64,000 nucleotides of DNA from Actinomycetota bacterium. GTDB lineage: Bacteria; Actinomycetota; JAICYB01. The translations under genes were made by a program, and so were the position numbers. The stretch spans positions 88,769-152,768 of the forward strand of contig JBBDRJ010000018.1 of the NCBI GenBank assembly GCA_040905525.1, read 5' to 3'. Below are positions 2,873 through 53,173 of the stretch, one piece after another. Every line of letters begins with the position of its first letter. Positions within the stretch are counted from its first letter, which is position 1. The notes under the pieces are model-generated. The model was given only the letters and a program-made list of their open reading frames with translations, did not search any database and was not told the DNA's origin.

Positions 2873-3643
2873 CTAAGACGCGGCGCGGGAGGGAACGAGG
2901 GTCGGGACGCGCTCGCTGGTTTCGATCGTGTCGTCGTCGGGCAAGGGGATCGTTTTGTGGTGAAGCCACAGGCGCAGCGCGGAGACCGCCATCTTCTTGG
3001 CATCGGCCGCGGCGTTCACGTGACTGCCATCGCGGTCGATCCAGATGGTCGGCACCTCGACGATCGTGAAGCCCAAACGTCGCGCCGTGACGAGCACGTC
3101 CACGTCGAAGAGGAAGTCACGTGAAGAGAGCAACGGAGTGATCCGTCGAACGAGATCGTAGGAAAGTACCTTCGCCCCGCACTGCGTATCGGTGTACGGG
3201 AGTCCGAAGAGGTTGCGGACGACGAGTGAGAAGCCGACGCTCGTCAACCGCCGGCTCATCGACCGTCGATTCGGCAGCACGGCCGCGGGATGGTAACGAG
3301 TCGCTATGGCGCCGTCGGCCGTTTCGGCCGCCTCGACGAGCCGGAGGAATTCCGCCGGCGGTGTCGCGCAGTCTGCGTCGACGAAGCCGATGAGATCGGC
3401 CTCACAGACACGGAACGCCTCCATGAGCACGCCGCCCTTCCCGAGCTTGGGGAACTGCAGGAGGCCGACCCGGTGGTCGGCCGACATATGGCGGCGCACC
3501 ACGTCGATCGTTCGATCCGTGCATCGGTCGAGCGCAACGATGAAGCGGGTGTCGGGCGACGTGCATCTGGCCCGGTACGCACGAAGTGTGCGACCGATCC
3601 GCTTCTCCTCGTTGTGGGCGGGGATCACGACATCTAGTCGCAC
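2873..3643 (-). CDS. Glycosyltransferase family 2
   Basis: 256 aa; LDVVIPAHNEEKRIGRTLRAY...FVDADCATPP... typical GT2 (DPM1-like) motifs. Confidence 0.8.
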   Translation of the reverse strand: MRLDVVIPAHNEEKRIGRTLRAYRARCTSPDTRFIVALDRCTDRTIDVVRRHMSADHRVGLLQFPKLGKGGVLMEAFRVCEADLIGFVDADCATPPAEFLRLVEAAETADGAIATRYHPAAVLPNRRSMSRRLTSVGFSLVVRNLFGLPYTDTQCGAKVLSYDLVRRITPLLSSRDFLFDVDVLVTARRLGFTIVEVPTIWIDRDGSHVNAAADAKKMAVSALRLWLHHKTIPLPDDDTIETSERVPTLVPSRAAS

Positions 3644-3987: not shown

Positions 3988-5568
3988 ATGGGGGATCGCG
4001 ATCTCGTCGTCAAAGAGCTCGTTTATCACCGGCAGCTGATTCCTTCGGTCGCGCGGAACGCAACCAAGACCGCGATGATCGATGGCCCGTACCGGGCCAC
4101 CTTCGAGCAGCACTTCGAGCGCGTCTGCCGCCTGGCCAACGCTCTGGGCTCAGAGCTCGGCGTGAAGCGGGACGACCGCGTGGGGATCCTGGCTCTCAAC
4201 AGCCACGCCTTCGTTGAGCTCTACCAGGCGTGCTTCATGGGCGGCGGCATCATCAACGGTCTCAACATCAGGCTGGCGCCGAAAGAGCTCGAGTTCATCC
4301 TCCAGGACTCCGGCTCGAAGGTCGTGCTCACCGATGCGATGTTCGCCGGCGTGATCGAACAGATCCGTCCGAATCTTCCCGACCTCGAGAAGGTGGTGCT
4401 CATCGGCGAGGGCGACGCCGCTCATGACGTGCGTTACGAGGACCTGGTTGCCGCCGGAAGCACCGACATCCCACCCGAGACCGAAGAGTCCGACCCGGTG
4501 ATCCTCAACTACACGGGCGGCACGACCGGTCTGCCCAAGGGCGTCCTCATCGACCAGCGAGCCGGGACGCTGCACAACTACCGCGTCTTCCTGGCCATCG
4601 ATATCGACAAAGACGAGATCTACCTGAACCAAACACCGATGTTCCACGGTGCTTCGGTGTTCAGCGTTGTCGGGACGGCTACCGTCGGTGGAACGCTTGC
4701 GTCGATCCCGGCCTTCGACCCCAAAGTCGTCATGGATGCGATCGAGACCCATCAGGTGACGGGGACGACGATGGTGCCGACGATGATCGGGATGACGTTC
4801 TCGCATCCCGATTTCGATCCCTCCCGGTTCGCATCGTTGCGTCTGCTCGCCTACGGTGCATCTCCGATGCCGGAAGCGCTACTCACGAAAGTCATGGAGC
4901 TCCTTCCGCAGGTCGAGCTGTATCAGGCCTACGGCATGACGGAGGCCACAGCCGTGACCACGGTACTGACGCCAGAGGATCACCGGCGCGGCGGTACGCT
5001 CCTGCGCTCGGCCGGGAGAGCGGTCCCTGGTGTCCAGATCACTATCCAAGATCCCCAGGGCAAGATCTTGCCGTCCGGTGAGGTCGGGGAAGTGTGCATG
5101 ACCTCGGGTTCGTATCTCCGTGAGTACTGGAAGCGCCCCGAAGAGACGGCTCAGACCTTCCGCGGCGGTTGGTACCACTCGGGGGACGCCGGCTACCTCG
5201 ACGAGGAGGGCTACCTCTTCCTGGTCGATCGCGTAAAGGACATGATCGTGTCCGGCGGCGAGAACATCTACACCAGCGAGGTCGAGAACGCGATCTCGAA
5301 GCATCCGGCCGTGCTGCAGGTCGCCGTGTTCGGCATCCCGAGCGAGCGGTGGGGTGAGGCCGTGCATGCCGTGATCGTCTTGCACGAAACGGCCACGGCC
5401 ACGGAGGACGAGATCATCGCGCACACGCGAGATTGGATCGCCGGCTACAAGGTGCCCAGGTCGGTCGAGTTCCGCGCCGAGCCGCTACCCCTGTCCGGTG
5501 CGATGAAGGTGCTGAAGCGAGACCTGCGGGCGCCGTACTGGGAAGGCAAGGAGCGCAAGGTCAACTAG
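3988..5568 (+). CDS. Acyl-CoA synthetase (AMP-binding, FadD-like)
   Basis: 526 aa; AMP-binding motif YTGGTTGLPKGV, GEVGEV, C-terminal SGGENIYTSEVENAI...YKVPRSVEF; RBS AGAGGGGGAG upstream of ATG. Confidence 0.85.
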   Translation: MGDRDLVVKELVYHRQLIPSVARNATKTAMIDGPYRATFEQHFERVCRLANALGSELGVKRDDRVGILALNSHAFVELYQACFMGGGIINGLNIRLAPKELEFILQDSGSKVVLTDAMFAGVIEQIRPNLPDLEKVVLIGEGDAAHDVRYEDLVAAGSTDIPPETEESDPVILNYTGGTTGLPKGVLIDQRAGTLHNYRVFLAIDIDKDEIYLNQTPMFHGASVFSVVGTATVGGTLASIPAFDPKVVMDAIETHQVTGTTMVPTMIGMTFSHPDFDPSRFASLRLLAYGASPMPEALLTKVMELLPQVELYQAYGMTEATAVTTVLTPEDHRRGGTLLRSAGRAVPGVQITIQDPQGKILPSGEVGEVCMTSGSYLREYWKRPEETAQTFRGGWYHSGDAGYLDEEGYLFLVDRVKDMIVSGGENIYTSEVENAISKHPAVLQVAVFGIPSERWGEAVHAVIVLHETATATEDEIIAHTRDWIAGYKVPRSVEFRAEPLPLSGAMKVLKRDLRAPYWEGKERKVN

Positions 5569-5582
5569 CGGAGTTCGCTTCG

Positions 5583-6044
5583 TCAGCGAACCGTGAACGC
5601 TGTGCGCATCCCAAGCTTGTAATGGACTTCGGTCTCCCCGTCTTCGGTGTCCACGCGATTGCAGACCAGGGCGTACGGGCCGGGATCAAGATCGAGGGTA
5701 AGAGTCTGGCTGTCCCCAGGCTCGATATCTTCGATCTCGTCTACGCCATCGACCTGGTCTTCGTCTACGGATCCGTCCGTTTTCGTTGGTAGTTGGCCGG
5801 GATCGAGGTCGGTGGAGATGACAACGAACTCGTGAATGTCCTCTCCGGTGTTCTCCACCGTGAACTCGACTTCGCCGGCGGCTCCGACGTCTGGATCTGG
5901 CCCTACGGAAAACTCCCTCAGTTCAACGGCGATATTCCTCGAGGGCGCAACCGTCGGCGACGGAGCCGTCTCTGGCTCGTTGGAGGTACAGGCCGGCGCG
6001 GCGAGTATCAGCACCACAGGCAACGCCAGGATTCGCGAGCGCAT
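5583..6044 (-). CDS. Putative lipoprotein with cupredoxin-like domain
   Basis: 153 aa; signal peptide + lipobox-like LAAPAC; acidic; possible copper-ligand pattern H...C...H...M (IHEF...VCNRV...VHYKLGM). Confidence 0.45.
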   Translation of the reverse strand: MRSRILALPVVLILAAPACTSNEPETAPSPTVAPSRNIAVELREFSVGPDPDVGAAGEVEFTVENTGEDIHEFVVISTDLDPGQLPTKTDGSVDEDQVDGVDEIEDIEPGDSQTLTLDLDPGPYALVCNRVDTEDGETEVHYKLGMRTAFTVR

Positions 6045-6098
6045 CCTATCCCCTTGGGCTCAAGCTACCCACCCCACGTTACACCTCGGTCGAACGGA

Positions 6099-7133
6099 TC
6101 AGTTGCTGAGCTGGTCGAACGTGCACTCCTCCGGCTTCTTGTCGTCACGCCAGCGGACGAATCCGGCCGCGTGCCGGAACCGCTGGCCGGATTGCACGTA
6201 GTCGTAGGTGACCTCGCACACCAGCGTCGGTTCGATCGATGTCCACTCGTATTCCTTACCGCCCGTCCAGCGGCTCTGAGCTCCGGGCCCCCACTCTTCC
6301 GGCGCCCCGAACCCGGCGCCGCTTACGTTGTGCAGCGGCTCCAGGATCTTGACCAGTTCTTTGCGCTCCTTAGCGCTGAACGACGCGGTGTGGCCGATGT
6401 AGCGCAGGTTCCCATCGTCGTACAACCCCAGTAGCAGCGATCCGACGCCACCGTGCTTGTGCGGGCGGTACCCGCCCACGACGCAGTCGGCCGTGCGCTT
6501 GTGTTTGATCTTGATCATCACCCGGTCGCCGGGCGAATAAGGAAGTGTCAGCTTCTTCGCGACGATACCGTCGCATTTCACCTTCTCCAGCTCGACGAAC
6601 CAGTCCTGCGCGACGTCGGCATCGTCCGTGCAGGGTGTGAGATGGAACGTCGGACCGGGCAACGTCGCCGGTGCGCCGGGTTCCTTGGGACGCTTCTTAC
6701 CGAAGACTCCCGTCAGGACGCGCAGCCGTTCGGCGAGCGGTTCGTCACACAGGTTCTTGTCGGTGCCGAGGATGTCGAACACGACGAAGCTGGCCGGGGT
6801 CTCGCCGGCCAGCTTGTTCACGCGCGACGCGGCCGGGTGAAGCCGCGCCTGCAAAGCGTCGAAGTCGAGCCCGGAATCCGACGGCAGGATGATCTCGCCA
6901 TCGACGACGCATGGATCGGGCAATGCGTCACGCAACAGCTCCTCGACCTCGGGGAAGTACCGATTAAGGGGACGGCCGTTACGACTGTCGATCTGTACGA
7001 GATCGCCATCACGGAAGACGATCGCTCGGAAGCCGTCCCACTTCGGTTCGTAGATCCACTCGTCGCCGCGTGGGACCTCGTCTTTGCCCTTGGCGAGCAT
7101 CGGCTTCACGGGAGGCTTAACGGGTAGTGACAT
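6099..7133 (-). CDS. ligC: ATP-dependent DNA ligase (LigC-like, ligase domain only)
   Basis: 344 aa; adenylation motif I KWDGFR (KxDG), overall ATP-dependent ligase core with no appended polymerase or nuclease domain. Confidence 0.75.
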   Translation of the reverse strand: MSLPVKPPVKPMLAKGKDEVPRGDEWIYEPKWDGFRAIVFRDGDLVQIDSRNGRPLNRYFPEVEELLRDALPDPCVVDGEIILPSDSGLDFDALQARLHPAASRVNKLAGETPASFVVFDILGTDKNLCDEPLAERLRVLTGVFGKKRPKEPGAPATLPGPTFHLTPCTDDADVAQDWFVELEKVKCDGIVAKKLTLPYSPGDRVMIKIKHKRTADCVVGGYRPHKHGGVGSLLLGLYDDGNLRYIGHTASFSAKERKELVKILEPLHNVSGAGFGAPEEWGPGAQSRWTGGKEYEWTSIEPTLVCEVTYDYVQSGQRFRHAAGFVRWRDDKKPEECTFDQLSN

Positions 7134-7167: not shown

Positions 7168-8160
7168 ATGCGATTCGTTGAAGCGGGCGGAGCAAGACTC
7201 TCGGTCATCGGGCTCGGCTGCTGGCAATTCGGTTCATGGGACTGGGGGTACGGTAACGACTACGCCCAGACGACCTCGATCGAAATAACGAACCGAGCAC
7301 TTGATCTCGGCGTGAACCTTGTGGACACCGCCGAGCTCTACGGATTCGGGCGGTCCGAGAAGATCGTGGGCCGGGCCATCGCCGAGCGGCGGCACGAGGC
7401 GTTCCTGGCGACGAAGCTCCTTCCAGTGATGCCCGTTGCGCCGATCGTCGAGCAGCGGGCGAAGGCGAGCATCGCCCGCATGCACGTGACGAACCTCGAT
7501 CTCTATCAGATCCATTGGCCGAATCCTGTCGTCGGTGACGGCACGGCGATGACCGGGATGCGCCGGCTGATCGACGCCGGCCTGGTTCGTCACGCAGGAG
7601 TTAGCAACTATCCGTTGTCGCGGTGGATGTCTGCGGATCGGGCTTTGGGCATGCCGGTACTGTCGAACCAGGTCCGTATGAACCTCGTCGATCGGCGTCC
7701 GCTCGTCGACCTTGTCCCCTTCGCGCGCAGCGAGGGACGCATCGTGATCGCCTACAGTCCGTTGGCGCAGGGGCTTCTCGGCGGGCGCTACGACCCCGAC
7801 AACGTGCCGACCGGAGTGGCGCGTCGCTCCAACCCGCTGTTCCTGCCCGAGAACCTCGAGCGAGCCACAACGCTGATAGGTGCGCTTCGTGACATAGCGG
7901 CGAGTCATCAATGCACGCCGGCTCAGATCGCGCTGGCCTGGGTGGTGCGCCATTCCAACGTCGTCGCGATCCCGGGTGCCTCGAGCGTTGAGCAGTTGGA
8001 GGCCAACGTCGCTGCGGCCGAGATCGAGCTCACTGAATCGGAAGCCCGCCAGCTCGAGGAAGCCGCCGACGCCTTCGAGCCCATCAGAGGAGCGGCCGCT
8101 GTTCGAGAGATGGCCGAGTCGGTCGTGTCCGGCCTTCGCGGCCGATTGGGACTTCGCTAG
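7168..8160 (+). CDS. Aldo/keto reductase
   Basis: ORF 7084..8160; start moved to ATG 7168 (RBS GGGGGAGG); MRFVEAGGARLSVIGLGCWQFG... typical AKR N-terminus. Confidence 0.8.
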   Translation: MRFVEAGGARLSVIGLGCWQFGSWDWGYGNDYAQTTSIEITNRALDLGVNLVDTAELYGFGRSEKIVGRAIAERRHEAFLATKLLPVMPVAPIVEQRAKASIARMHVTNLDLYQIHWPNPVVGDGTAMTGMRRLIDAGLVRHAGVSNYPLSRWMSADRALGMPVLSNQVRMNLVDRRPLVDLVPFARSEGRIVIAYSPLAQGLLGGRYDPDNVPTGVARRSNPLFLPENLERATTLIGALRDIAASHQCTPAQIALAWVVRHSNVVAIPGASSVEQLEANVAAAEIELTESEARQLEEAADAFEPIRGAAAVREMAESVVSGLRGRLGLR

Positions 8161-8210: not shown

Positions 8211-9383
8211 ATGACCACGCCTACGCAGACCTTCGACTGGACCGATCAGGCCTTTCTGTCCGACCCCTATCCGCATTACCGCGCGCTGCGCGAGCGCGAC
8301 CCTGTGCACTACAACGCGTCGCGTGGGACGTGGGCGCTAACGCGCTACAACGACATAGTCGCCGTCTTGCGCGATCACGATCGGTTCTCGGCCGAACGCG
8401 GGCCGGGCGCCGAAGACCCGGACTTCCCCCGCTCGATGCTCGGCTCCGATCCGCCCCATCACACTCGGCTGCGGAACCTCGTGAACAAAGCGTTCACCGC
8501 ACGAACCGTCGAGCGGCTTCGGGTGCGCATCCAAGAGCTCGTCGACGCCAATCTGGACCGAGTCGCCGAGCGTGGAGAGATGGAGGTCGTCAACGACTTC
8601 GCTTACCCCCTGCCGATCACGGTCATCGCCGAGATGCTCGGGGTGCCGGCGGACGACCGCGACTTCTTCCGCGAAGCGTCGTCCAAGATCGCGGTCGCTC
8701 TCGGCCCGATCGAAGACATGCAGATCGCCATGCGCGCCCTGGAGGGACGCAACCAGCTCATCGCATATTTCAACGAGCTCATCCCCAAGCGATCCGGCGA
8801 CGACGGCGACGATCTGATCACGGCATTGCTCCGGGCAGAGGAAGCCGGTGACTTCCTCAGTCACGGCGAGCTCCTGGCCATGCTGCTCCTCTTGCTCGTG
8901 GCCGGGCACGAGACGACTGTGAACCTCATCGGCAACGGATTGATCGCTCTCCTGCGAAATCCGGATCAGCTCGAACGTCTGCGAAGTGAAGAAGGGATCG
9001 AGCGGAAAGCAACGGAGGAGTTGCTGCGCTACGACTCTCCCGTCCAGTTCACCGGACGGGTCGTCCTGGAAGATGTCGAGATCGGCGGCAAGACCATCCG
9101 CGCCGGTCAGGGGCTGACGACGCTTCTCGCTTCGGCAAACCGCGATCCGGAGCTCTTCGAGGATCCGGACATGCTCGACCTGACCCGCGATCCGTGCCCG
9201 CACCTGTCCTTCTCGGCCGGGATCCACTTCTGCCTGGGTGCCCAGCTGGCGCGCCTGGAGGGCCAGATCGCCCTGTCGACGATCGTTCGCAGATTCCCCG
9301 ACATCGCGATCGCGACCGACAAGCTCGAGTGGCGGCCGGCGCCGATCCTGCGCGGTGTGGTGGCGTTGCCGGTTACGTTCTAG
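8211..9383 (+). CDS. Cytochrome P450
   Basis: 390 aa; heme-binding loop FSAGIHFCLGAQLA, AGHETT, ELLRYDSPV. Confidence 0.9.
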   Translation: MTTPTQTFDWTDQAFLSDPYPHYRALRERDPVHYNASRGTWALTRYNDIVAVLRDHDRFSAERGPGAEDPDFPRSMLGSDPPHHTRLRNLVNKAFTARTVERLRVRIQELVDANLDRVAERGEMEVVNDFAYPLPITVIAEMLGVPADDRDFFREASSKIAVALGPIEDMQIAMRALEGRNQLIAYFNELIPKRSGDDGDDLITALLRAEEAGDFLSHGELLAMLLLLLVAGHETTVNLIGNGLIALLRNPDQLERLRSEEGIERKATEELLRYDSPVQFTGRVVLEDVEIGGKTIRAGQGLTTLLASANRDPELFEDPDMLDLTRDPCPHLSFSAGIHFCLGAQLARLEGQIALSTIVRRFPDIAIATDKLEWRPAPILRGVVALPVTF

Positions 9384-9581
9384 CGCGTGACTGAAGACTG
9401 ATCACAAGGAGTCGCTACGCTCCATCCTGAGAGTCGGCCCTGCAACGTAATATTCGTTCTGCTCGACAGCCTCAATCGCCATGTCCTGGACGCCTACGGG
9501 GACGGCAGCGAGTTCGACACGCCCAACCTCGACCGCTTCGCGAAGGGCGCGATCAAGTTCGAGAACCACTACTCCGGCGCG

Positions 9582-10982
9582 TTGCCCTGCATGCCTGCGC
9601 GGCACGACCTGCTATGTGGTGCATGGGACTTTCCATGGAAGCCGTGGGGCTCGATAGAGATCTGGGAGGAGCCGCTCACCGAGGCGCTTCGACGCGAAGG
9701 TGTGTGCACGAAGCTTGTCAGTGATCACCCGCACCTGTTCGAGAGCGGCGGCGAGAACTATCACGTGGGCTTCTCCGCGTGGGACTACCAGCGTGGGCAC
9801 GAAGGCGACCCCTGGCGCACGCGCCCCGACGCGTCGTGGCTCGGCGCGCCGTCGTTCGGTCGCGGCTGGCTGCCCTACGACACCTCCCGCGGCTGGTTCC
9901 GAAGCGAGGAGAACTTCCCCGGCCCCCGGACGATGACCGCGGCCGCGCGCTGGCTCGACGAAGAGGCGCAGGCGAGCTCGGGCCGGGACTCGATGGACGG
10001 CCTGCCCGAACATGCCGACCGTTACGAGCGCTTCCTGCTCTTCGTCGACGAGTTCGACCCGCATGAGCCTTTCGACACACCCGAGCCGTACGCCTCGATG
10101 TACGACGAGGCTTGGGAAGGACCGCACCTCATCTGGCCGCCGTACATACGCGGCGCGCAGGAGCGGGGCGTGCTCACGTCCGAACAGGCACGCCAGGTGC
10201 GCGCCCAGTACGGCGGCAAGCTCACGATGATCGACGCATGGTTCGGCCGGATGCTCGACGCAATCGACAACAACGAGTACTGGGACGACACGGCGGTAAT
10301 CGTGACGACAGACCACGGGCACTACCTGGGCGAGAAGGACGCGTGGGGGAAGCCGCCCATCCCGATCTACGAGACGATGGGACACATCCCCTTGCTCGTC
10401 CGCTGGCCGGGAGCCGAGCCGCGAACCATCAACGCCCTGACGACATCAGTGGACATCGCAGCCACCATCGTCGACGTGTTCGGAGCGTCCTTCCGTCACC
10501 CGACGCACGGTCGTTCTCTGCTCCCGTTGATCACGGGGGAGTCGACGTCGGTTCGTGACTGGATGCTCTCGGGGATCTGGGGCCGCGAGATCCACCTGCT
10601 CTGGGAAGGAAAGAAGTACGCGCGAGCACCGGTGGGCGCCAACGTGCCGCAGAGCCTGTGGTCCAACCGCTGGTCGACTATGCCCGTTTGGCGTTTCGCG
10701 GATCTGAAGCTGCCGGTCCCCGACGACCGCGCGATCCTCGACCACATGCCGGGGTCGACGATCCCCGTTATCCGCCAACCCTTCCGGGAAGGGGACATGC
10801 TCCCCTTCTGGGCGTGGGGTCCCTTCGACGGCAACGAGCTCTACGACATCTCAAACGATCCGGGCGAGGACGCCGATCTCGCCGGTACACCGCTCGAGAA
10901 GGTGGCGGCCGACCTGCTCCACGACGCTCTGAAAGAGATCGAAGCTCCGAGCGATCACTATGTTCGGCTCGGCCTAGACTGA
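9582..10982 (+). CDS. Sulfatase family protein (formylglycine-dependent type)
   Basis: 466 aa from TTG; CMPAR (C-x-P-x-R) at the very N-terminus, TTDHGHYLGEKDAWGKP; conserved N-terminal region continues in frame upstream to about 9444 with no canonical start (see findings). Confidence 0.7.
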   Translation: MPCMPARHDLLCGAWDFPWKPWGSIEIWEEPLTEALRREGVCTKLVSDHPHLFESGGENYHVGFSAWDYQRGHEGDPWRTRPDASWLGAPSFGRGWLPYDTSRGWFRSEENFPGPRTMTAAARWLDEEAQASSGRDSMDGLPEHADRYERFLLFVDEFDPHEPFDTPEPYASMYDEAWEGPHLIWPPYIRGAQERGVLTSEQARQVRAQYGGKLTMIDAWFGRMLDAIDNNEYWDDTAVIVTTDHGHYLGEKDAWGKPPIPIYETMGHIPLLVRWPGAEPRTINALTTSVDIAATIVDVFGASFRHPTHGRSLLPLITGESTSVRDWMLSGIWGREIHLLWEGKKYARAPVGANVPQSLWSNRWSTMPVWRFADLKLPVPDDRAILDHMPGSTIPVIRQPFREGDMLPFWAWGPFDGNELYDISNDPGEDADLAGTPLEKVAADLLHDALKEIEAPSDHYVRLGLD

Positions 10983-10986
10983 CTCC

Positions 10987-11661
10987 GTGACAGACAAGGA
11001 CATGCTCGACATCACGTTCTACATGGCTTGCCTGAAGCTGGTCGGACGTCGCTGCGTGGTCATCGGCGGCGGTCCGGTTGGCCTCGAGAAGGTCGACGGT
11101 CTGCTGGAGTGCGACGCCGACGTCACCCTGATCGCGCGGGAAGCGGTGGATGCCCTGAAGGAGCTCGCGAACGAGGGCTCCATCAAATGGGAGCAACGCT
11201 CGTACGAGGGCCCGGCCGACCTCGAGGGCGCCTTCATCGTGATCGCCGCCACCGAGAAGACGGATCTCAACACTCAGGTGTTCAACGATGCCGAGCATCG
11301 GGCAATGCTCTGCAACGTCGTCGATGTACCGCCGTTGTGCAACTTCATCCTTCCGGCCATCACGCGCACCGGACCCATCGCTATCGCGATCTCTACGGCC
11401 GGTGCCTCGCCCGCGCTGGCCAAGCGGATGAAGCGCGAGATCGCCGAGACCTACGGCGCGCCGTACGCGCGTCTGGCCGAGATCCTCAACGCTTATCGCG
11501 AGTGGGCGAAGTCCACGCTTCCGACCTACCAGGACCGCAAGGAGTTCTTCGAGTCGATCGTGAACGGTACGCCCGACCCCGTCGAGCTCCTGCGCGCGGA
11601 CGATGAGCAAGCCGTTCACGATCTGATCGCGTCACGGCAGAGGACGGCCGTCCCCGCCTGA
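10987..11661 (+). CDS. Precorrin-2 dehydrogenase / sirohydrochlorin ferrochelatase family (CysG N-terminal-like)
   Basis: 224 aa; Rossmann motif VVIGGGPVGLEKVDGLL, overall siroheme synthase N-domain-like. Confidence 0.65.
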   Translation: MTDKDMLDITFYMACLKLVGRRCVVIGGGPVGLEKVDGLLECDADVTLIAREAVDALKELANEGSIKWEQRSYEGPADLEGAFIVIAATEKTDLNTQVFNDAEHRAMLCNVVDVPPLCNFILPAITRTGPIAIAISTAGASPALAKRMKREIAETYGAPYARLAEILNAYREWAKSTLPTYQDRKEFFESIVNGTPDPVELLRADDEQAVHDLIASRQRTAVPA

Positions 11662-17836: not shown

Positions 17837-18502
17837 TCAGACGGGCTGGGCGCCGCTCTTGGAAGCGGGGGACACCCCCGCGCCCCCGGGCAGGTCGAGG
17901 GCCAGGCTTCGCCACAGATACCAGGACGCGACGGATCGCCACGGTCGCCAGGGCTCCGCCACGCGCGCCATGTTGTCCTTCGTGGGTTCGAGGTTGTAGG
18001 CGCGCTTCACGGCGTTGCGGATGCCGAGGTCGTCGACGGGCCAGACGTCGGGGCGTCCGAGCTTGAAGATCAGGAACATCTCGGCCGTCCACCGCCCGAT
18101 GCCCTTGACGGCCACGAGGTCGGCGATGATCCGCTCGTCGTCGTAGCGGCCGATCCCGTTGAGCCTGAGCTCGCCGCCGACCACGTGCTGAGCCAGGTCT
18201 TTCGCGTAGGCGACCTTGGCGTTGGACATACCGGTGGCGCGTAGTTGCTTAACGGTGGCGGAAAGGATGTCGACGGGCAGGATCTTGCGTCCGTTGGGGT
18301 GCAGTGCGACGAGGCGCTGCCAGATCGTCTCGGCGGCCTTGGCCGAAAGCTGCTGGCCGACGATGGCGCGCAGGATCGTCGTGAAGTTGTCGCCCCGGGC
18401 GCCGGGCTTCAGCGCACACGGACCGACGGCCTTCACGATCCGGCGCATGACCGGATCCGAACGCGACAGATGCTTGGTTGCGGTAACGACGTCCAACGGC
18501 AT
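17837..18502 (-). CDS. DNA-3-methyladenine glycosylase II family (AlkA-like, HhH-GPD)
   Basis: 221 aa; HhH-GPD region VKGIGRWTAEMFLIF...D. Confidence 0.7.
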   Translation of the reverse strand: MPLDVVTATKHLSRSDPVMRRIVKAVGPCALKPGARGDNFTTILRAIVGQQLSAKAAETIWQRLVALHPNGRKILPVDILSATVKQLRATGMSNAKVAYAKDLAQHVVGGELRLNGIGRYDDERIIADLVAVKGIGRWTAEMFLIFKLGRPDVWPVDDLGIRNAVKRAYNLEPTKDNMARVAEPWRPWRSVASWYLWRSLALDLPGGAGVSPASKSGAQPV

Positions 18503-18541: not shown

Positions 18542-19372
18542 CTAGCGGATGAGGCGAGACATCCGGCGGTCGGCCAGAATCTTGCCTCCGGTCTGGCACG
18601 TCGGGCAGTACGTGATCTCGTGTGACTCGAACGACACCCGTCGTAGATCGGATGCGCAAACCGGACAAGGCTCGCCGGCCCGGTTGTGGACGACCCAGTG
18701 ATCGCCGAGCTTCGTAGGAAGTCCGCCGGCTCGCTTGCGCTCGTGCACGAGTCCGTCCTCCAGCACGGCGGCGATGGACTCGAGCAGGCGCTCTCGTTCG
18801 GTTGGCTTCAGCGATTTGAGCGAGGCGAAGGGCGACAGCTTCGCCAGGTGGAGCGCGTCGTCGGTGTAGCCGCGTCCCAGGCCCGCTACGGTTCGCTGGT
18901 CGCGCAGGATCGTGTGGATGCGGCGGTTGTCGTCCGAGGTTCGGATGAGCTCGACGAACTCGGGCGAGTCGAGTTCCGGGCCGAGCTTCACCAGCGGGCC
19001 GTCGTCGCCGGGAGCCAAGACCCACCACCCGGCCTTGCGATCCGTCCCGTACTCCTTGATCAGGACCGCACGTCCCTCGAAGACGATGCGCGCCACCGAT
19101 CCTTTGGGCCGTGTCGACTTCGCGGGTTCCTCGATGTCGACCCGGCCCCCTTGGGACAGGTGGAAGAGCAGCCGCGGTCCATCGAAGTCGAGAAAGACGT
19201 ACTTCCCCCGGCGTCCCACGCCGGTGACCGCCTTGCCGAAGAGCTCCTGGGGGCCGGGGGACACGGTCTTGAGCGCGGAGAACTGCAACGGCTCGATCCG
19301 GCGCAGGGTCTTTCCCTTTATGTGCTCGCCGAGTCGCTCGGCGAGTGCTTGCATCTCCGGACGTTCCGGCAT
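18542..19372 (-). CDS. Fpg/Nei family DNA glycosylase (formamidopyrimidine/endonuclease VIII-like)
   Basis: 276 aa; N-terminal MPERPE (catalytic Pro2/Glu3), C-terminal zinc finger CPVC...CPTC. Confidence 0.8.
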
Positions 19373-49203: not shown

Positions 49204-49428
49204 TTAGCCGAGCGAGGCCTTAAGCTTGTCGTACTCGGGGAACCAGCCGGCCTTGTGCTTGGAGTGCACCATCTTCCCGTCCACTTCGACGTCGAATATG
49301 CCGTCCGAGGCCGGAACGAGCGTCAGATCCTCGATGTCGTCCTCGTAGTCGGCGAGGAGCTTGCCCACCAGATCGAGCGCTTGTTCGGTGTAGCCGCAGT
49401 CGTAGCAGTACGTGATCTTGATGTGCAT
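49204..49428 (-). CDS. Rdx/SelW-like small redox protein
   Basis: 74 aa; N-terminal CxxC (ITYCYDCGY) in thioredoxin-like context typical of SelW/SelT/Rdx. Confidence 0.55.
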   Translation of the reverse strand: MHIKITYCYDCGYTEQALDLVGKLLADYEDDIEDLTLVPASDGIFDVEVDGKMVHSKHKAGWFPEYDKLKASLG

Positions 49429-49444
49429 GTGCTAATCACAGTAC

Positions 49445-51367
49445 ATGGCCGACTATGTCTGGCAGCCCTCCGACGAGGTGATCGATCGAGCCAACGTCAC
49501 GCGGCTGGCGAGAAGCCACGGACTGACTGGATACTCCGAGCTCCTCCATCGATCGCGCGAAGAGATCGAGTGGTTCTGGGACGCAGTCGTCTCCGATCTG
49601 AACATCGAATTCAGGGTTCCGTACGGCCCGGTCCTCGACGTGTCTCGCGGTGTGCAGTGGCCGGAGTGGTTCGTCGGCGGAGGGATCAACATCGCAGAGA
49701 GCTGCGTCGACCGATGGCGCTCCAGCGGACGCGAAGCGATCGTCTGGGAAGGTGAAGAGGGAGCAACCCGGCGGCTGACCTACGACGAGCTGGGTGCCGA
49801 GGTGGCCCGCGTCGGTACCGGACTGCGTTCCCTCGGTGTGTCCAACGGCGATGCCGTCGGCTTGTTCCTGCCGATGGTCCCCGAGGCCGTCGTGACGTTC
49901 CTGGCGTGCTGCCGCATCGGAGCCGTCGTGGTGCCGATCTTCTCCGGGTTCGCGGCGTCGGCTGTGGCTGTGCGCCTAAACGACGCGCGCGCGAAGGTCC
50001 TTGTGTGCGCCGACGGATTCTTCCGTCGGGGTGTCCTCGTGGCGATGAAGGAAACGGCCGACGACGCGGCCGCGCAATGTGCATCCGTCGATCACGTGGT
50101 GGTCGTGCCACGGACGGGTCGAAGCGTGACGATGAGCGATCGGGACATCGGTTGGGGCGAGCTGTTTTCGTCGTCGGAAACGCCGATGGCGGACACCGGT
50201 TCCGAGGACCCGTTCATGATCGCCTACACCTCGGGGACCACGGGCAAGCCGAAAGGCTCCGTGCATGTTCACGGCGGATTCCTCGTGAAGATCGCAAGCG
50301 AGGTCGCGTACCAGACCGACTACCAACCCGGCGAGCTTCTCTTTTGGTTCACCGACCCCGGCTGGATCATGGGTCCGTGGGAGATCATCGGCACCCTCGC
50401 ACTCGGCGGAACGATCTTCCTCTACGACGGAACCCCCGACCACCCGGCCCCCGATCGACTGTGGGCCATGGTCGAACGCCACGGCATCAACATCCTCGGC
50501 GTGTCGCCGACGCTCGTACGAGCCCTGGCTCCCCTCGGCGACGAGCACGTCGCCTCGCACGATCTGTCGACGCTGCGCATACTCGGCTCGACGGGAGAGC
50601 CGTGGAACACCGAGCCGTACCTGTGGTTCCACAACGTCGTCGGTGGTGGGCGCTGCCCGATCGTCAACTTCTCCGGGGGAACCGAGGTCGGCGCGTGCTT
50701 CCTGTCGCCAACTCCGGTGACACCGCTCAAGGCGTGCTCGCTCGGGGGCCCGGCCCTCGGCATGGCCGTCGACGTTTTCGACGCCGACGGCAAGCAGGTG
50801 CGCGGAGGCGTCGGCGAGCTGGTGTGCACCAAGCCGTGGCCCGGCATGACGCGCGGGATATGGGGCGATCCCGACCGCTACATCTCGACGTACTGGTCAC
50901 GCTGGCCGGATGTCTGGGTTCACGGGGACTGGGCCTCGATCGACGACGACGGCGAGTGGTACCTGCACGGCCGTTCCGACGACACGCTCAACGTTGCCGG
51001 TAAACGCGTAGGTCCGGCTGAGATCGAATCGGTGCTCGTATCGCACGCCGCCGTCGTCGAAGCCGCCGTGATCGGTGTTCCGCACGATGTCAAGGGCGAA
51101 GAGATCTGGTGCTACGTGGTCGTCGGGGCCCGTGTGGATGCGGACGAAGCTCTTCGGGACGACCTGTCCAAGCTCGTGGAGCGCGATGTGGGCAAAGCCT
51201 TCCGCCCCGGCGCCGTCCGTTTCGTGACGCAGCTTCCGAAAACGCGTAACGCGAAGGTCCTCCGCCGCGCCGTCCGGGCCGCGGCCCTCGGCGCAGACCC
51301 CGGAGATCTTTCGAGCCTGGAGAATCCGTCCGCTCTGGAAGAGATCGCCGCCGTGGGTAAACAGTAA
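49445..51367 (+). CDS. AMP-forming acyl-CoA synthetase (acetyl/acetoacetyl-CoA synthetase-like)
   Basis: 640 aa; YTSGTTGKPKGSVH, WFTDPGWIMG, C-terminal PKTRNAKVLRR. Confidence 0.8.
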   Translation: MADYVWQPSDEVIDRANVTRLARSHGLTGYSELLHRSREEIEWFWDAVVSDLNIEFRVPYGPVLDVSRGVQWPEWFVGGGINIAESCVDRWRSSGREAIVWEGEEGATRRLTYDELGAEVARVGTGLRSLGVSNGDAVGLFLPMVPEAVVTFLACCRIGAVVVPIFSGFAASAVAVRLNDARAKVLVCADGFFRRGVLVAMKETADDAAAQCASVDHVVVVPRTGRSVTMSDRDIGWGELFSSSETPMADTGSEDPFMIAYTSGTTGKPKGSVHVHGGFLVKIASEVAYQTDYQPGELLFWFTDPGWIMGPWEIIGTLALGGTIFLYDGTPDHPAPDRLWAMVERHGINILGVSPTLVRALAPLGDEHVASHDLSTLRILGSTGEPWNTEPYLWFHNVVGGGRCPIVNFSGGTEVGACFLSPTPVTPLKACSLGGPALGMAVDVFDADGKQVRGGVGELVCTKPWPGMTRGIWGDPDRYISTYWSRWPDVWVHGDWASIDDDGEWYLHGRSDDTLNVAGKRVGPAEIESVLVSHAAVVEAAVIGVPHDVKGEEIWCYVVVGARVDADEALRDDLSKLVERDVGKAFRPGAVRFVTQLPKTRNAKVLRRAVRAAALGADPGDLSSLENPSALEEIAAVGKQ

Positions 51368-51370
51368 GTC

Positions 51371-52258
51371 ATGGATGTCCGCATCACGCATCCCGACAAG
51401 GTCCTGTTTCCACGGGACGGCTATACCAAGGCCGACGTCGTCGGCTACTACGTTGAGGTCTCCGACGCGATGCTGCCGTTCATGCGTAACCATCCGCTGG
51501 CCATGCTCCGGTTCAACGACGGCATCGACCGCGAAAGGTTCTTCCACAAGCGCACGCCGAAGTACTTTCCGTCTTACATCGACCGCGTGCAGATAACGAT
51601 CGGCGACGAGAAGGTGAACTACTCGGTCTGCAACAACCTCGAGGCGCTGGCCTACATCGCAAACCACAACTCCATCGAGCTCCATCTACTGACCGTCCGT
51701 GCCGACGACCTGGAGCACCCCGACAGGATGGTCTTCGACCTGGACCCGTCTATCGATGACTTCGAGATGGTGCGCGAAGCGACGCGCTGGTTGCACGAGC
51801 TTCTCGATGAGGTGGGCCTGCCCGCTTTCCTCATGACGAGCGGATCGCGCGGGCTGCACACCTGGGTCCCCCTGGACCGCAAGTCCGACACCGAGGAGGT
51901 CCACTCCTTCGCCGGCGAAGTCGCGAGAGTTCTCGTCGATCGCCATCCGGAAGTCCTCACCACCGAGTTCGCCAAGGCCGATCGCGGATCGAGGATCTAT
52001 TTCGACGTCGCGCGCAACGCGCCGGGGCAGCACGCGGTCGCTCCGTACTCCCTGCGGGCGAAAGACGGCGCTCCGGTCGCCACTCCGATCACGTGGGACG
52101 AGCTGGACGATCCCAAGCTCACCCCGCAGCGCTGGACTATGAAGACGGTGACCGGGCGCATCGGCGACGATCCCTGGGCGGGCATGGCCAAGAAGGCTCG
52201 ATCACTCAGCCGCGCTCGCAAAGCGCTCGACCGCTTGGCACGGCGGGGCTCTGTCTGA
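51371..52258 (+). CDS. Non-homologous end-joining DNA polymerase domain (LigD Pol/PrimPol-like, standalone)
   Basis: 295 aa; primase-polymerase motifs (MVFDLDP, SGSRGLHTWVPL); no fused ligase or nuclease domain. Confidence 0.75.
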   Translation: MDVRITHPDKVLFPRDGYTKADVVGYYVEVSDAMLPFMRNHPLAMLRFNDGIDRERFFHKRTPKYFPSYIDRVQITIGDEKVNYSVCNNLEALAYIANHNSIELHLLTVRADDLEHPDRMVFDLDPSIDDFEMVREATRWLHELLDEVGLPAFLMTSGSRGLHTWVPLDRKSDTEEVHSFAGEVARVLVDRHPEVLTTEFAKADRGSRIYFDVARNAPGQHAVAPYSLRAKDGAPVATPITWDELDDPKLTPQRWTMKTVTGRIGDDPWAGMAKKARSLSRARKALDRLARRGSV

Positions 52259-52324
52259 GTATCGTTCGGTTCCCATACGACACGTTCAGGATCCGCCGAA
52301 GGCGGCCCCTGCGATTGGAGGAAC

Positions 52325-53173
52325 ATGAGCCCTGCGCTTTCGTCCGACCTCGTCGGCCTCAAAGGAGACCCGGTTCCCTACTCGTGGGACTCCAAGGACG
52401 TCATGCTCTACAACTTCGGGATCGGCGCTCGTCCCTACGACGACCTCGATTTCCTGTTCGAGGGCAAGGGCCCCAAGGCCATCCCGACCTTCGCCGTCAT
52501 CGGCGGAATGGCGGGTATGGGCGTCATGGGACAGATCGAGGGCATCAACCCGATGCTCATCCTCCACGGTTCGGAATCGATCACGCTCCACCGCGAGCTC
52601 CCGCCCGACGCCAAGGTCACGCTCGAAGGCGAGATCACAGAGATCTGGGACAAGGGTCAGGCCGCCGTCATCGGCATCGAGACAACCGCCAAGGACGACA
52701 AGGGTCCGCTGTTCACGGCCAAAGCGAGCATCTTCGCCCGCGGCGCTGGCGGGTTCGGCGGTGAGCGCGGTCCGTCGGCCAAAGGATTCAACGAGCCGCC
52801 GGAACGAGAGCCCGATCACGTCATCTCCGACGAGACGCGGTTCGAACAAGCGGCGATCTACCGTCTGTCCGGGGATCGCAACCCTCTGCACATCGACCCG
52901 GAGTTCGCGAAGGTCGGCGGCTTCGATACACCGATCCTGCACGGCCTGTGCACGTACGGCTTCGTGGGGCGCGCGATCCTCAAGGCTGTGTGCGGAAACG
53001 ATCCGGCGAACTTCAAGTCGTTCGACGCGCGGTTCGCCGACGTCGTCTACCCGGGCGACACGATCACCACCAAGCTATGGGTGGACGGCCCAGAGGGAAA
53101 AAGTGCGATCGTCCAGGCAGAGACGCAAAGGGGCAACGTCGTCATCGCGAACGCGAAGGCGACTTTTGCGTGA
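52325..53173 (+). CDS. MaoC-like (R)-specific enoyl-CoA hydratase / dehydratase (double hot-dog)
   Basis: 282 aa; hot-dog fold signature YRLSGDRNPLHIDPEFAK...GFDTPILHGLCTYG. Confidence 0.8.
   Translation: MSPALSSDLVGLKGDPVPYSWDSKDVMLYNFGIGARPYDDLDFLFEGKGPKAIPTFAVIGGMAGMGVMGQIEGINPMLILHGSESITLHRELPPDAKVTLEGEITEIWDKGQAAVIGIETTAKDDKGPLFTAKASIFARGAGGFGGERGPSAKGFNEPPEREPDHVISDETRFEQAAIYRLSGDRNPLHIDPEFAKVGGFDTPILHGLCTYGFVGRAILKAVCGNDPANFKSFDARFADVVYPGDTITTKLWVDGPEGKSAIVQAETQRGNVVIANAKATFA

Follow-up and report, generated by a model that had tools for sequence, protein, structure and literature searches.

Known stand-alone and split end-joining polymerases

The NHEJ polymerase of Methanocella paludicola (Mpa Pol; PDB 5DMU) is a stand-alone protein of ~300 aa without a fused ligase or phosphoesterase, and its gene is operonic with those of the NHEJ phosphoesterase and ligase (PMC4797286). 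The polymerase domain of Mtb LigD (Prim-PolD/PolDom; 2IRU) is fused to phosphoesterase and ligase domains. Mtb LigD is encoded next to ku. Mycobacterial Prim-PolC (PolD1, MSMEG_6301; 5OP0/6SA0) is likewise a stand-alone LigD-like Prim-Pol, found in an actinobacterium which also encodes LigC (PMC5663958, PMC7442782); the Prim-PolC subfamily, specialists of short gaps, is defined by Loop 3 (Msm residues 313-333, with P320/N321; PMC7442782). In Streptomyces, polymerase, ligase (including a LigC-type ligase) and Ku genes are separate and scattered, as kuA-polK, ligC-polR and a third PolDom gene, polO (PMC5124664). Split, dispersed end-joining parts are known in actinobacteria, as the initial annotation of the DNA analysed here had stated (PMC5124664; bioRxiv 10.1101/869602), and Actinobacteria are enriched in split NHEJ sets.

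A stand-alone polymerase of the NHEJ class

In the window, that is, the whole 64-kb stretch of DNA that was analysed, the gene at 51371..52258 (+ strand) encodes a stand-alone LigD-type (AEP) primase-polymerase of 295 aa (PrimPol), which PGAP labels a "non-homologous end-joining DNA ligase" although it consists of the polymerase only. In profile searches, Pfam PF21686 (LigD_Prim-Pol) matched residues 19-269 of 295 with E=4e-83 and 279.3 bits (cutoff 27.4), and TIGR02778 (ligD_pol) scored 259.3 bits (cutoff 214.7), which agrees with the LigD-type assignment made initially. Among PDB entries the best match is Mpa Pol (5DMU, E=1.2e-75; 44% identity over 264 aa), followed by 6SA0 (2e-44), 2FAO (3e-43) and 2IRU (9e-41). 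PrimPol is 33% identical to the Mtb LigD polymerase domain and 32-35% identical to Prim-PolC proteins (35% to the mycobacterial one). As to class, it comes closest to Mpa Pol and to the protein at locus L097 (49% identity). The nearest relatives of PrimPol come from Acidimicrobiia; stand-alone PrimPols of Streptomyces (L005, L013, P0117), at about 50% identity, are among the nearest cultured relatives.

Functional residues were mapped through HMMER alignments of PrimPol to 2IRU, 6SA0, 5DMU and 2FAO. The catalytic Asp triad is present as D123/D125/D212 (Mtb D137/D139/D227), as had to be checked according to the initial annotation, and the nucleotide-binding motif SGxxGxH reads SGSRGLH (157-163). 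K10/K20 correspond to K23/K35 of Prim-PolC, residues of its 5′-phosphate pocket (PMC7442782). R47 aligns with Mtb R53, which acts in strand displacement, F57/F58 with the splaying residues F63/F64, and R205 with R220, the Loop 2 Arg (PMC4797286, PMC5663958). The pocket Asn (N20/N13) of the Prim-PolC, Mtb PolDom and Methanocella structures is His7 in PrimPol; the Pseudomonas LigD polymerase (2FAO) has a His at this position as well. The Mtb PolDom lysines equivalent to K10/K20 are presumably those numbered K16/K26.

The Asp triad, SGxRGLH, the pocket lysines, the Arg and the Phe-Phe pair are common to PrimPol and Mpa Pol, from which the window protein differs in being bacterial and not archaeal, in its His7 and in having acyl-CoA metabolism genes and no NHEJ genes as neighbours. 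The Mtb polymerase domain, of the same family, has the same functional residues, but is extended by a longer insertion ahead of its DxD motif and, unlike PrimPol, is part of a fusion protein. With Prim-PolC, PrimPol shares the catalytic core and the 5′-phosphate pocket. However, the alignment to 6SA0 stops at chain residue 298, equivalent to PrimPol residue 279, and because just 16 residues follow, PrimPol lacks the C-terminal Loop 3, as does the Mtb domain. Prim-PolC membership is contradicted by the missing Loop 3 and by the position of ligC, which does not adjoin PrimPol but lies 44,238 bp away; from its sequence, PrimPol is assigned to the NHEJ/Prim-PolD class.

Candidate partners within the window

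No Ku gene was found in the 64-kb window, be it in the Pfam gene tables (1-62 kb), in Pfam scans of the remaining ORFs or with a tblastn Ku probe, in line with the initial annotation; the probe was validated by its match at locus L049, which is a Pfam Ku (E=4e-54). Neither a phosphoesterase nor a LigD-type ligase gene was found within the 64 kb, so that it is the class of the protein only that suggests an NHEJ role for PrimPol. While the conserved PolDom genes of Streptomyces adjoin kuA or ligC, the window PrimPol adjoins neither, and its sole genomic tie to a Ku, ligase or phosphoesterase gene within 64 kb is a LigC gene 44 kb away.

This ligase (6099..7133, - strand; 344 aa) consists of PF01068 and PF04679 only (adenylation and OB domains), which justifies its earlier description as a domain-minimal, LigC-like enzyme. 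It is an ATP-dependent DNA ligase of the LigC type: NF006078 (PRK08224) scores 441.8 bits (cutoff 296), whereas TIGR02779, the LigD ligase domain, stays at 175.9 bits, below its cutoff of 227.75. Motif I is KWDG with K31; identity is 43-47% to ligases convergent with Prim-PolC-like genes and 26-34% to LigD-type ligases, and PDB 1VS0 is matched with E=3e-24. Its neighbours are an AMP-binding gene, a divergent aldo/keto reductase gene (7168..8160, + strand) and a small secreted cupredoxin-like ORF (5583..6044, - strand). Of the neighbours named initially the reductase stands, whereas the "cupredoxin lipoprotein" is weakly supported: the ORF gives weak matches only (Cupredoxin_1, whose 21.5 bits miss the cutoff of 27, and a partial EfeO), and although a signal peptide and a Cys are present at the N-terminus, they do not form a canonical lipobox. 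No Prim-PolC gene lies next to the window LigC, and tblastn detected no remnant nearby. At the orthologous LigC locus of GCA_964560135.1 (L178), the position of the cupredoxin-like ORF is taken by a convergent, overlapping Prim-PolC ortholog of 335 aa, which shares 57% identity with that of M. smegmatis.

The lipid-gene neighbourhood

Upstream of PrimPol lies a gene for an Acs-family AMP-forming acyl-CoA synthetase (49445..51367, + strand; 640 aa; ACAS_N, AMP-binding and AMP-binding_C), which scores under the acetate-CoA ligase equivalog cutoffs (NF001208, 608.8 bits versus 657; TIGR02188, 598.8 versus 724.95) and evolves with dN/dS = 0.16-0.24. It is preceded, after a 16-nt spacer, by the divergent gene of an Rdx-family small redox protein (49204..49428, - strand; PF10262, E=4e-19). 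Downstream of PrimPol a double hot-dog (R)-specific enoyl-CoA hydratase/dehydratase, MaoC, is encoded (52325..53173, + strand; MFE-2_hydrat-2_N and MaoC_dehydratas; 282 aa); it is slowly evolving (96% identity to the L084 protein, dN/dS 0.03) and has 7658 homologs at E<=1e-30. ORF coordinates and Pfam domains thus bear out the synthetase and the MaoC-like hydratase of the initial annotation. The three genes are co-directional, with spacers of 3 and 66 nt.

At the Acs-like/PrimPol junction (51365..51373, + strand; ...CAG TAA gtc ATG GAT...) the PrimPol ATG begins at the fourth nucleotide past the stop codon, just as noted before. No good Shine-Dalgarno sequence precedes this ATG, which fits termination-reinitiation coupling; in this genome PrimPol is probably co-transcribed and translationally coupled with the Acs-like gene, as judged from the junction. 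In relatives the two genes overlap by 4 nt (GTGA, L086) or are separated by 9 nt (L084). GGAGG lies 5 nt before the MaoC ATG, and inspection of the Acs-like/PrimPol/MaoC region revealed no consensus promoter or terminator signals.

Directly after the PrimPol stop codon a conserved 25-nt element, GTATCGTTC-N(8-14)-GACAC, is located (52259..52283, + strand). It matches once in the window, with 0 matches expected, and among 178 loci it was found only upstream of MaoC; it stays with MaoC in L085 and L094, where other genes part PrimPol and MaoC. Judging by its distribution, it probably serves as a promoter or operator belonging to MaoC.

The gene order in relatives

The block of a minus-strand Rdx gene, Acs, PrimPol and MaoC recurs in L084 (79% PrimPol identity), L086 (67%) and L093 (61%), and with insertions in L085, L094 and L097. 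Only one lineage shows the order Acs-PrimPol-MaoC (PrimPol identity >=51%); L088 (62%) lacks the block, and so does every locus with a PrimPol identity of <=50% except L097. Where it is missing, PrimPol has a LigD-type ligase, a phosphoesterase, Ku, a convergent LigC or unrelated genes as neighbours. Even within the lineage, the Acs|PrimPol junction is broken in four genomes and the PrimPol|MaoC junction in three, one of these breaks being due to a gene on the opposite strand. In L094 a LigD_N phosphoesterase gene overlaps the PrimPol start by 4 nt; LigD phosphoesterases are bona fide NHEJ partners. The one locus examined that has a close MaoC homolog and no PrimPol (L095/L096) has MaoC amid acyl-CoA dehydrogenase and AMP-binding genes. 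The initial annotation had called the co-orientation with fatty-acid genes odd, a view which finds no support in an order confined to one lineage, the decay of both junctions, the element that moves with MaoC and the phosphoesterase of L094.

Interpretation

With a probability of roughly 0.75, PrimPol is an active stand-alone NHEJ-class polymerase whose position among lipid genes is an inherited, lineage-specific order and not a functional module; inherited synteny is the most likely source of that context, judging by the relatives. The finding is real but ordinary and belongs with the known split NHEJ-like parts of actinobacteria. We infer the enzymatic activity, the co-transcription and the repair partners of PrimPol from sequence. 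In a possible course of events, PrimPol would dock on the 5′-phosphate of a break or gap via the K10/K20 pocket predicted from the conserved residues, F57/F58 and R47 would splay the template, and D123/D125/D212 would extend the 3′-OH, probably with ribonucleotides and Mn2+. The nick would then be sealed by a separate ATP-dependent ligase, either a LigD-type enzyme encoded elsewhere or the LigC-type enzyme 44 kb away; Ku and phosphoesterase, if present in the organism, would be encoded outside the 64-kb window, and MaoC would be under its own upstream control element.

It is rather unlikely that PrimPol is instead the working polymerase partner of the orphan LigC, filling gaps in single-strand-break or base-excision repair, so that the two would form a Ku-independent pair 44 kb apart. 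The lack of an adjoining Prim-PolC gene or remnant, unlike in GCA_964560135.1, and of a Ku gene in the window would fit such a partnership, as would the Fpg/Nei and HhH-GPD glycosylase genes ~11 kb from LigC. Mycobacterial LigC1 binds Prim-PolC, PolD2 and base-excision repair glycosylases including Fpg (PMC5663958). However, PrimPol has no Loop 3 as the short-gap specialists do (PMC7442782), it is paired with a LigD phosphoesterase in L094, a Prim-PolC copy may sit elsewhere in the MAG, and a separation of 44 kb is not linkage. Moreover, the relative represented by L097/L178 retains both paralogs, which argues for distinct roles of PrimPol and Prim-PolC there; the pairing with the LigC-like ligase implied by the initial annotation is not the canonical one, in which LigC is partnered by the Loop 3-bearing Prim-PolC (PMC7442782), the true LigC/Prim-PolC pair being that of this relative.

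Considerably less probable still is a true operon in which PrimPol expression is linked on purpose with short-chain acyl-CoA metabolism, perhaps as part of a starvation or stationary-phase regulon, or in which the Acs-like protein or MaoC moonlights in repair. Bacterial NHEJ is regarded as a pathway of stationary phase or dormancy, and the co-orientation, the tight junction, the lack of a conserved terminator-like hairpin after the Acs-like gene or PrimPol and the retention of the block in at least six related genomes all speak for an operon; yet the adjacency is restricted to one lineage, both junctions are repeatedly interrupted, MaoC keeps its element wherever it has moved and occurs at L095/L096 among lipid genes that have no PrimPol, and no biochemical link is known. 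The block does persist across wide divergence (with PrimPol identities as low as 51% and a dS of about 1), and the 3-nt spacer or 4-nt overlap of the Acs-like gene and PrimPol recurs in relatives; selection for co-expression may therefore act. That PrimPol has been selected for co-expression with short-chain acyl-CoA metabolism, through translational coupling to the Acs-like gene, and, after loss of the Prim-PolC adjoining LigC, forms a Ku-independent repair pair with the orphan LigC is similarly improbable. The least credible option, hardly to be entertained, is an AEP gene that is decaying, stems from a mobile element or belongs to defence, and that plays no part in chromosomal repair. Mobile elements often carry AEP primase-polymerases, and the gene context of PrimPol varies among relatives, but the ORF is intact with all catalytic motifs, its composition (GC 0.635, GC3 0.84) is identical to that of its neighbours, no integrase or phage genes occur in the Pfam gene tables of the window (1-62 kb), PADLOC gave no defence-system matches, and the protein falls in the LigD-type clade and not in plasmid or phage PrimPol clades. 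With a dN/dS of 0.13-0.28, PrimPol is under purifying selection.

Implications

Should the joint reading of co-expression and pairing with LigC prove true, the locus would represent a minimal repair module that has been rewired and is gated by metabolism; only if rewiring or co-regulation is real would it bear on the evolution of minimal, Ku-independent repair modules. If the ordinary reading of inherited synteny is true, the value of the finding is mostly for annotation: the lipid-gene neighbours of PrimPol would be unfit for predicting its function through guilt by association, the window LigC would exemplify the loss of the polymerase gene that usually adjoins ligC, and an uncultured Actinomycetota lineage would be added to the actinobacteria with fully dispersed NHEJ-like parts.

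The polymerase, its neighbours and the ligase

The window has a uniform G+C content (~64-65%), and its DNA recurs identically as contig JBBDKJ010000004.1 (313 kb) of MAG GCA_040879475.1. The initial annotation placed a LigD-type polymerase gene between genes for an acyl-CoA synthetase and a MaoC-like hydratase, with a LigC-like ligase 45 kb away; the ORFs were found where it had put them, and profile matches confirm what it called all four genes. The acyl-CoA synthetase gene (Acs-like gene, 49445-51367, +) encodes ACAS_N, AMP-binding and AMP-binding_C domains and does not reach the equivalog cutoff set for acetate-, propionate- or acetoacetate-CoA ligase; it is therefore regarded as encoding an Acs-family enzyme with no specific substrate assigned. 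Its stop codon and the start of the polymerase gene, PrimPol (51371-52258, +; LigD_Prim-Pol E=4e-83, TIGR02778 above cutoff), form the junction TAA-gtc-ATG, and 66 nt that include a GGAGG ribosome-binding site lie between PrimPol and MaoC (52325-53173, +), a double hot-dog MFE-2-type/MaoC hydratase gene. The start codons of the Acs-like gene and of a divergent Rdx-family redox gene (49204-49428, -) lie 16 nt apart (49429-49444; 18-58 nt in relatives), which implies either promoters overlapping inside coding sequence or leaderless transcripts.

The best PDB match of PrimPol is 5DMU (E=1.2e-75), the NHEJ polymerase that Methanocella paludicola encodes as a stand-alone protein (Mpa Pol; PMC4797286); Prim-PolC of M. 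smegmatis (5OP0/6SA0), LigD-POL of Pseudomonas (2FAO) and PolDom of M. tuberculosis (2IRU) rank next, with E=1e-44 to 1e-40. The predicted fold is thus already answered for by a match to solved structures (E=1e-75). Residues were mapped from alignments to the PDB chains, with roles taken from the papers on Mpa Pol and Prim-PolC. D123/D125/D212 correspond to the catalytic triad (Mtb D137/D139/D227), the conserved motif SGSRGLH (157-163) to nucleotide binding, R205 to Mtb R220 of Loop 2, R47 to Mtb R53 (strand displacement) and F57/F58 to Mtb F63/F64 (template splaying); in the 5'-phosphate pocket, K10/K20 correspond to K23/K35 of Prim-PolC, and the pocket Asn (Prim-PolC N20) is replaced by His (H7). 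The defining feature of Prim-PolC is a C-terminal Loop 3, residues 313-333 (PMC7442782); PrimPol ends 16 residues beyond the position aligned to residue 298 of 6SA0, and Loop 3 is therefore absent. By BLASTP, PrimPol is 49% identical to a paralog in a related genome (locus L097) and 44% to Mpa Pol; identity is 35% to Msm Prim-PolC, 33% to Mtb PolDom and 32% to a relative's Prim-PolC ortholog. Together with a dN/dS of 0.13-0.28 against two syntenic genomes, the conserved residues, the missing loop and these identities identify the predicted protein as an intact, selected stand-alone polymerase of the NHEJ/Prim-PolD class, not a Prim-PolC. PGAP annotates PrimPol (MEX0874414.1) as "non-homologous end-joining DNA ligase" although it is ligase-less, and its relatives appear in IMG as "bifunctional non-homologous end joining protein LigD"; each of these names implies more domains than are present.

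The ligase gene of the window (6099-7133, -) encodes adenylation and OB domains only; it reaches 442 bits with the LigC equivalog NF006078 (cutoff 296), stays below the cutoff of the LigD ligase-domain model, and is by profile a predicted LigC-type enzyme. It is 43-47% identical to ligases convergent with Prim-PolC-like genes in Microbacteriaceae, versus 26-34% to LigD-type ligases. Its ortholog in GCA_964560135.1 (P0293, 59%) shares a 233-kb contig with the PrimPol-MaoC locus L097, which is ~100 kb away. In that genome LigC and a 335-aa PrimPol overlap convergently, forming the canonical LigC/Prim-PolC pair (L178:8001-10021); this polymerase shares 57% identity with Msm Prim-PolC and has the C-terminal extension. 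From the co-occurrence of L097 and a separate LigC/Prim-PolC pair, the lineage is predicted to have had two PrimPol paralogs at separate loci ancestrally. The L178 LigC locus and the window have upstream synteny in common (P450, siroheme-synthase-like gene), and where Prim-PolC would be expected at the window's LigC locus (5583-7133) there is instead a cupredoxin-like ORF, together with an AMP-binding gene, with no remnant of Prim-PolC detectable at this locus, indicating that the LigC-associated polymerase was apparently lost or relocated in the window genome, at least from the LigC locus. Two BER glycosylase genes, of the HhH-GPD family and Fpg/Nei with H2TH, stand side by side (17837-18502 and 18542-19372, both -); at ~11 kb from the ligase gene, they are too far away to count as clustered with it. 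Mycobacterial LigC has Fpg among its interaction partners (PMC5663958).

Conservation of the lipid-gene context

Loci of the close clade were reached through homologous proteins and exact-protein look-up of the encoding contigs; peptide-pattern scans of genomes and metagenomes returned almost only relatives of <=51% identity, the patterns being shared family-wide. A GC3-based gene caller shows that neighbours vary across related loci; as it mis-called several opposite-strand ORFs, the statistics rest on tblastn. The block Rdx(-)/Acs/PrimPol/MaoC is present in L084 (PrimPol identity 79%; 9-nt gap) and L086 (67%; GTGA overlap), and also in L093 (61%) and L097 (51%), where a GMC-oxidoreductase fragment and AMP-binding plus SpoU genes, respectively, separate the Acs-like gene from PrimPol. 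PrimPol and MaoC are parted by an opposite-strand 617-aa gene in L085 (70%) and by a 159-aa ORF in L094 (64%); L088 (62%) has neither neighbour. In L085 (ERZ25039550 contig_10947) the Acs-like gene is in fragments (4512-5490) and MaoC seems fused to an aldehyde dehydrogenase (8912-11178), probably frameshift errors of long-read assembly and not real pseudogenes or fusions. Within the lineage the Acs/PrimPol junction is broken four times and PrimPol/MaoC three times; the pattern is ordinary synteny decay, not upkeep of a specific pair. Among ~150 more loci, with identities of 30-50%, PrimPol is never accompanied by MaoC; it is flanked by a LigD-type ligase immediately upstream (with phosphoesterase and Ku or without them), a convergent LigC-type ligase of the Microbacterium/Leifsonia type, or unrelated genes. 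Insertion of PrimPol into a pre-existing Acs-MaoC pair was considered and is unsupported, as MaoC was not found immediately behind Acs at any locus.

A 25-nt element, GTATCGTTC-N8-14-GACAC, directly follows the PrimPol stop (52259-52283, +), the one match in the window where 0 are expected. Its occurrences in 178 loci all lie upstream of MaoC (L085:8796-8822; L086:6895-6922; L094:4838-4864), including L085 and L094 with their intervening genes; as it tracks MaoC even past such insertions, MaoC probably carries its own cis-element, a predicted promoter or operator. L094 has a second, partial copy after its PrimPol stop (L094:4287), which makes a perfect inverted repeat, TCGTTCGG-N9-CCGAACGA. 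Between the element and the ribosome-binding site, the window (52284-52315) and L094 (4865-4900) have a GC-rich hairpin insert of ~30 nt, GGATCCGCCGAAGGCGGCCCCTG, absent from L084, L085, L086 and L093; being confined to these two loci and without a U-tract, it was rejected as a terminator, and no conserved terminator follows PrimPol. Consensus scans, uninformative for high-GC actinobacteria, detected no promoter; the single terminator-like site fell within the Acs-like gene, and shuffled sequence gave more. Most economically, PrimPol would in this genome be distal in the transcription unit of the Acs-like gene and MaoC at least partly autonomous, their juxtaposition being inherited and not functional.

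Partners and alternative readings

Split, scattered NHEJ-like genes are already documented: Streptomyces has kuA-polK, ligC-polR and polO (PMC5124664), M. smegmatis four primase-polymerases, including Prim-PolC and PolD2 (PMC5663958), "non-conventional" NHEJ, its domains spread over separate proteins, shows significant enrichment in Actinobacteria, and LigD parts occur without Ku in 10% of genomes (both bioRxiv 10.1101/869602); bioRxiv 10.1101/2023.09.30.560322 has nothing on Acidimicrobiia or stand-alone domains. The window locus differs from such sets only in that no Ku, ligase or phosphoesterase is adjacent and that LigC is without its usual polymerase neighbour. That Ku is missing from the window, as the initial annotation had it, holds in Pfam gene tables (1-62 kb), scans of the remaining ORFs and a tblastn probe (whose matches at other loci were validated as Pfam Ku, E=4e-54); no LigD phosphoesterase was found in the window either. 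In L094 a stand-alone LigD phosphoesterase gene (2975-3412, +; 145 aa, PF13298 E=1e-39) overlaps the PrimPol start by 4 nt, which shows that PrimPols of this clade can share an operon with a genuine NHEJ partner.

PrimPol, being without Loop 3, is not the canonical partner of LigC. It might have replaced Prim-PolC beside the orphan LigC, which lacks its usual polymerase neighbour; this is unlikely, as Loop 3 is missing and a relative keeps both paralogs. True metabolic co-regulation with the lipid genes, suggested by the close junction with the Acs-like gene, seems more improbable still, with both junctions decaying. The interpretation in the initial annotation is supported in part: the identities of the genes stand, but the context that it called odd is lineage-specific synteny. 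Hardly any weight is left for a decaying or mobile gene, since the composition of PrimPol equals that of its neighbours and defence-system models have no match at the locus. The explanation that we favour, with a probability of about 0.75, is that PrimPol encodes a stand-alone primase-polymerase of the NHEJ class, predicted to be active, which is probably translated together with the Acs-like gene upstream and would work with repair partners encoded elsewhere.
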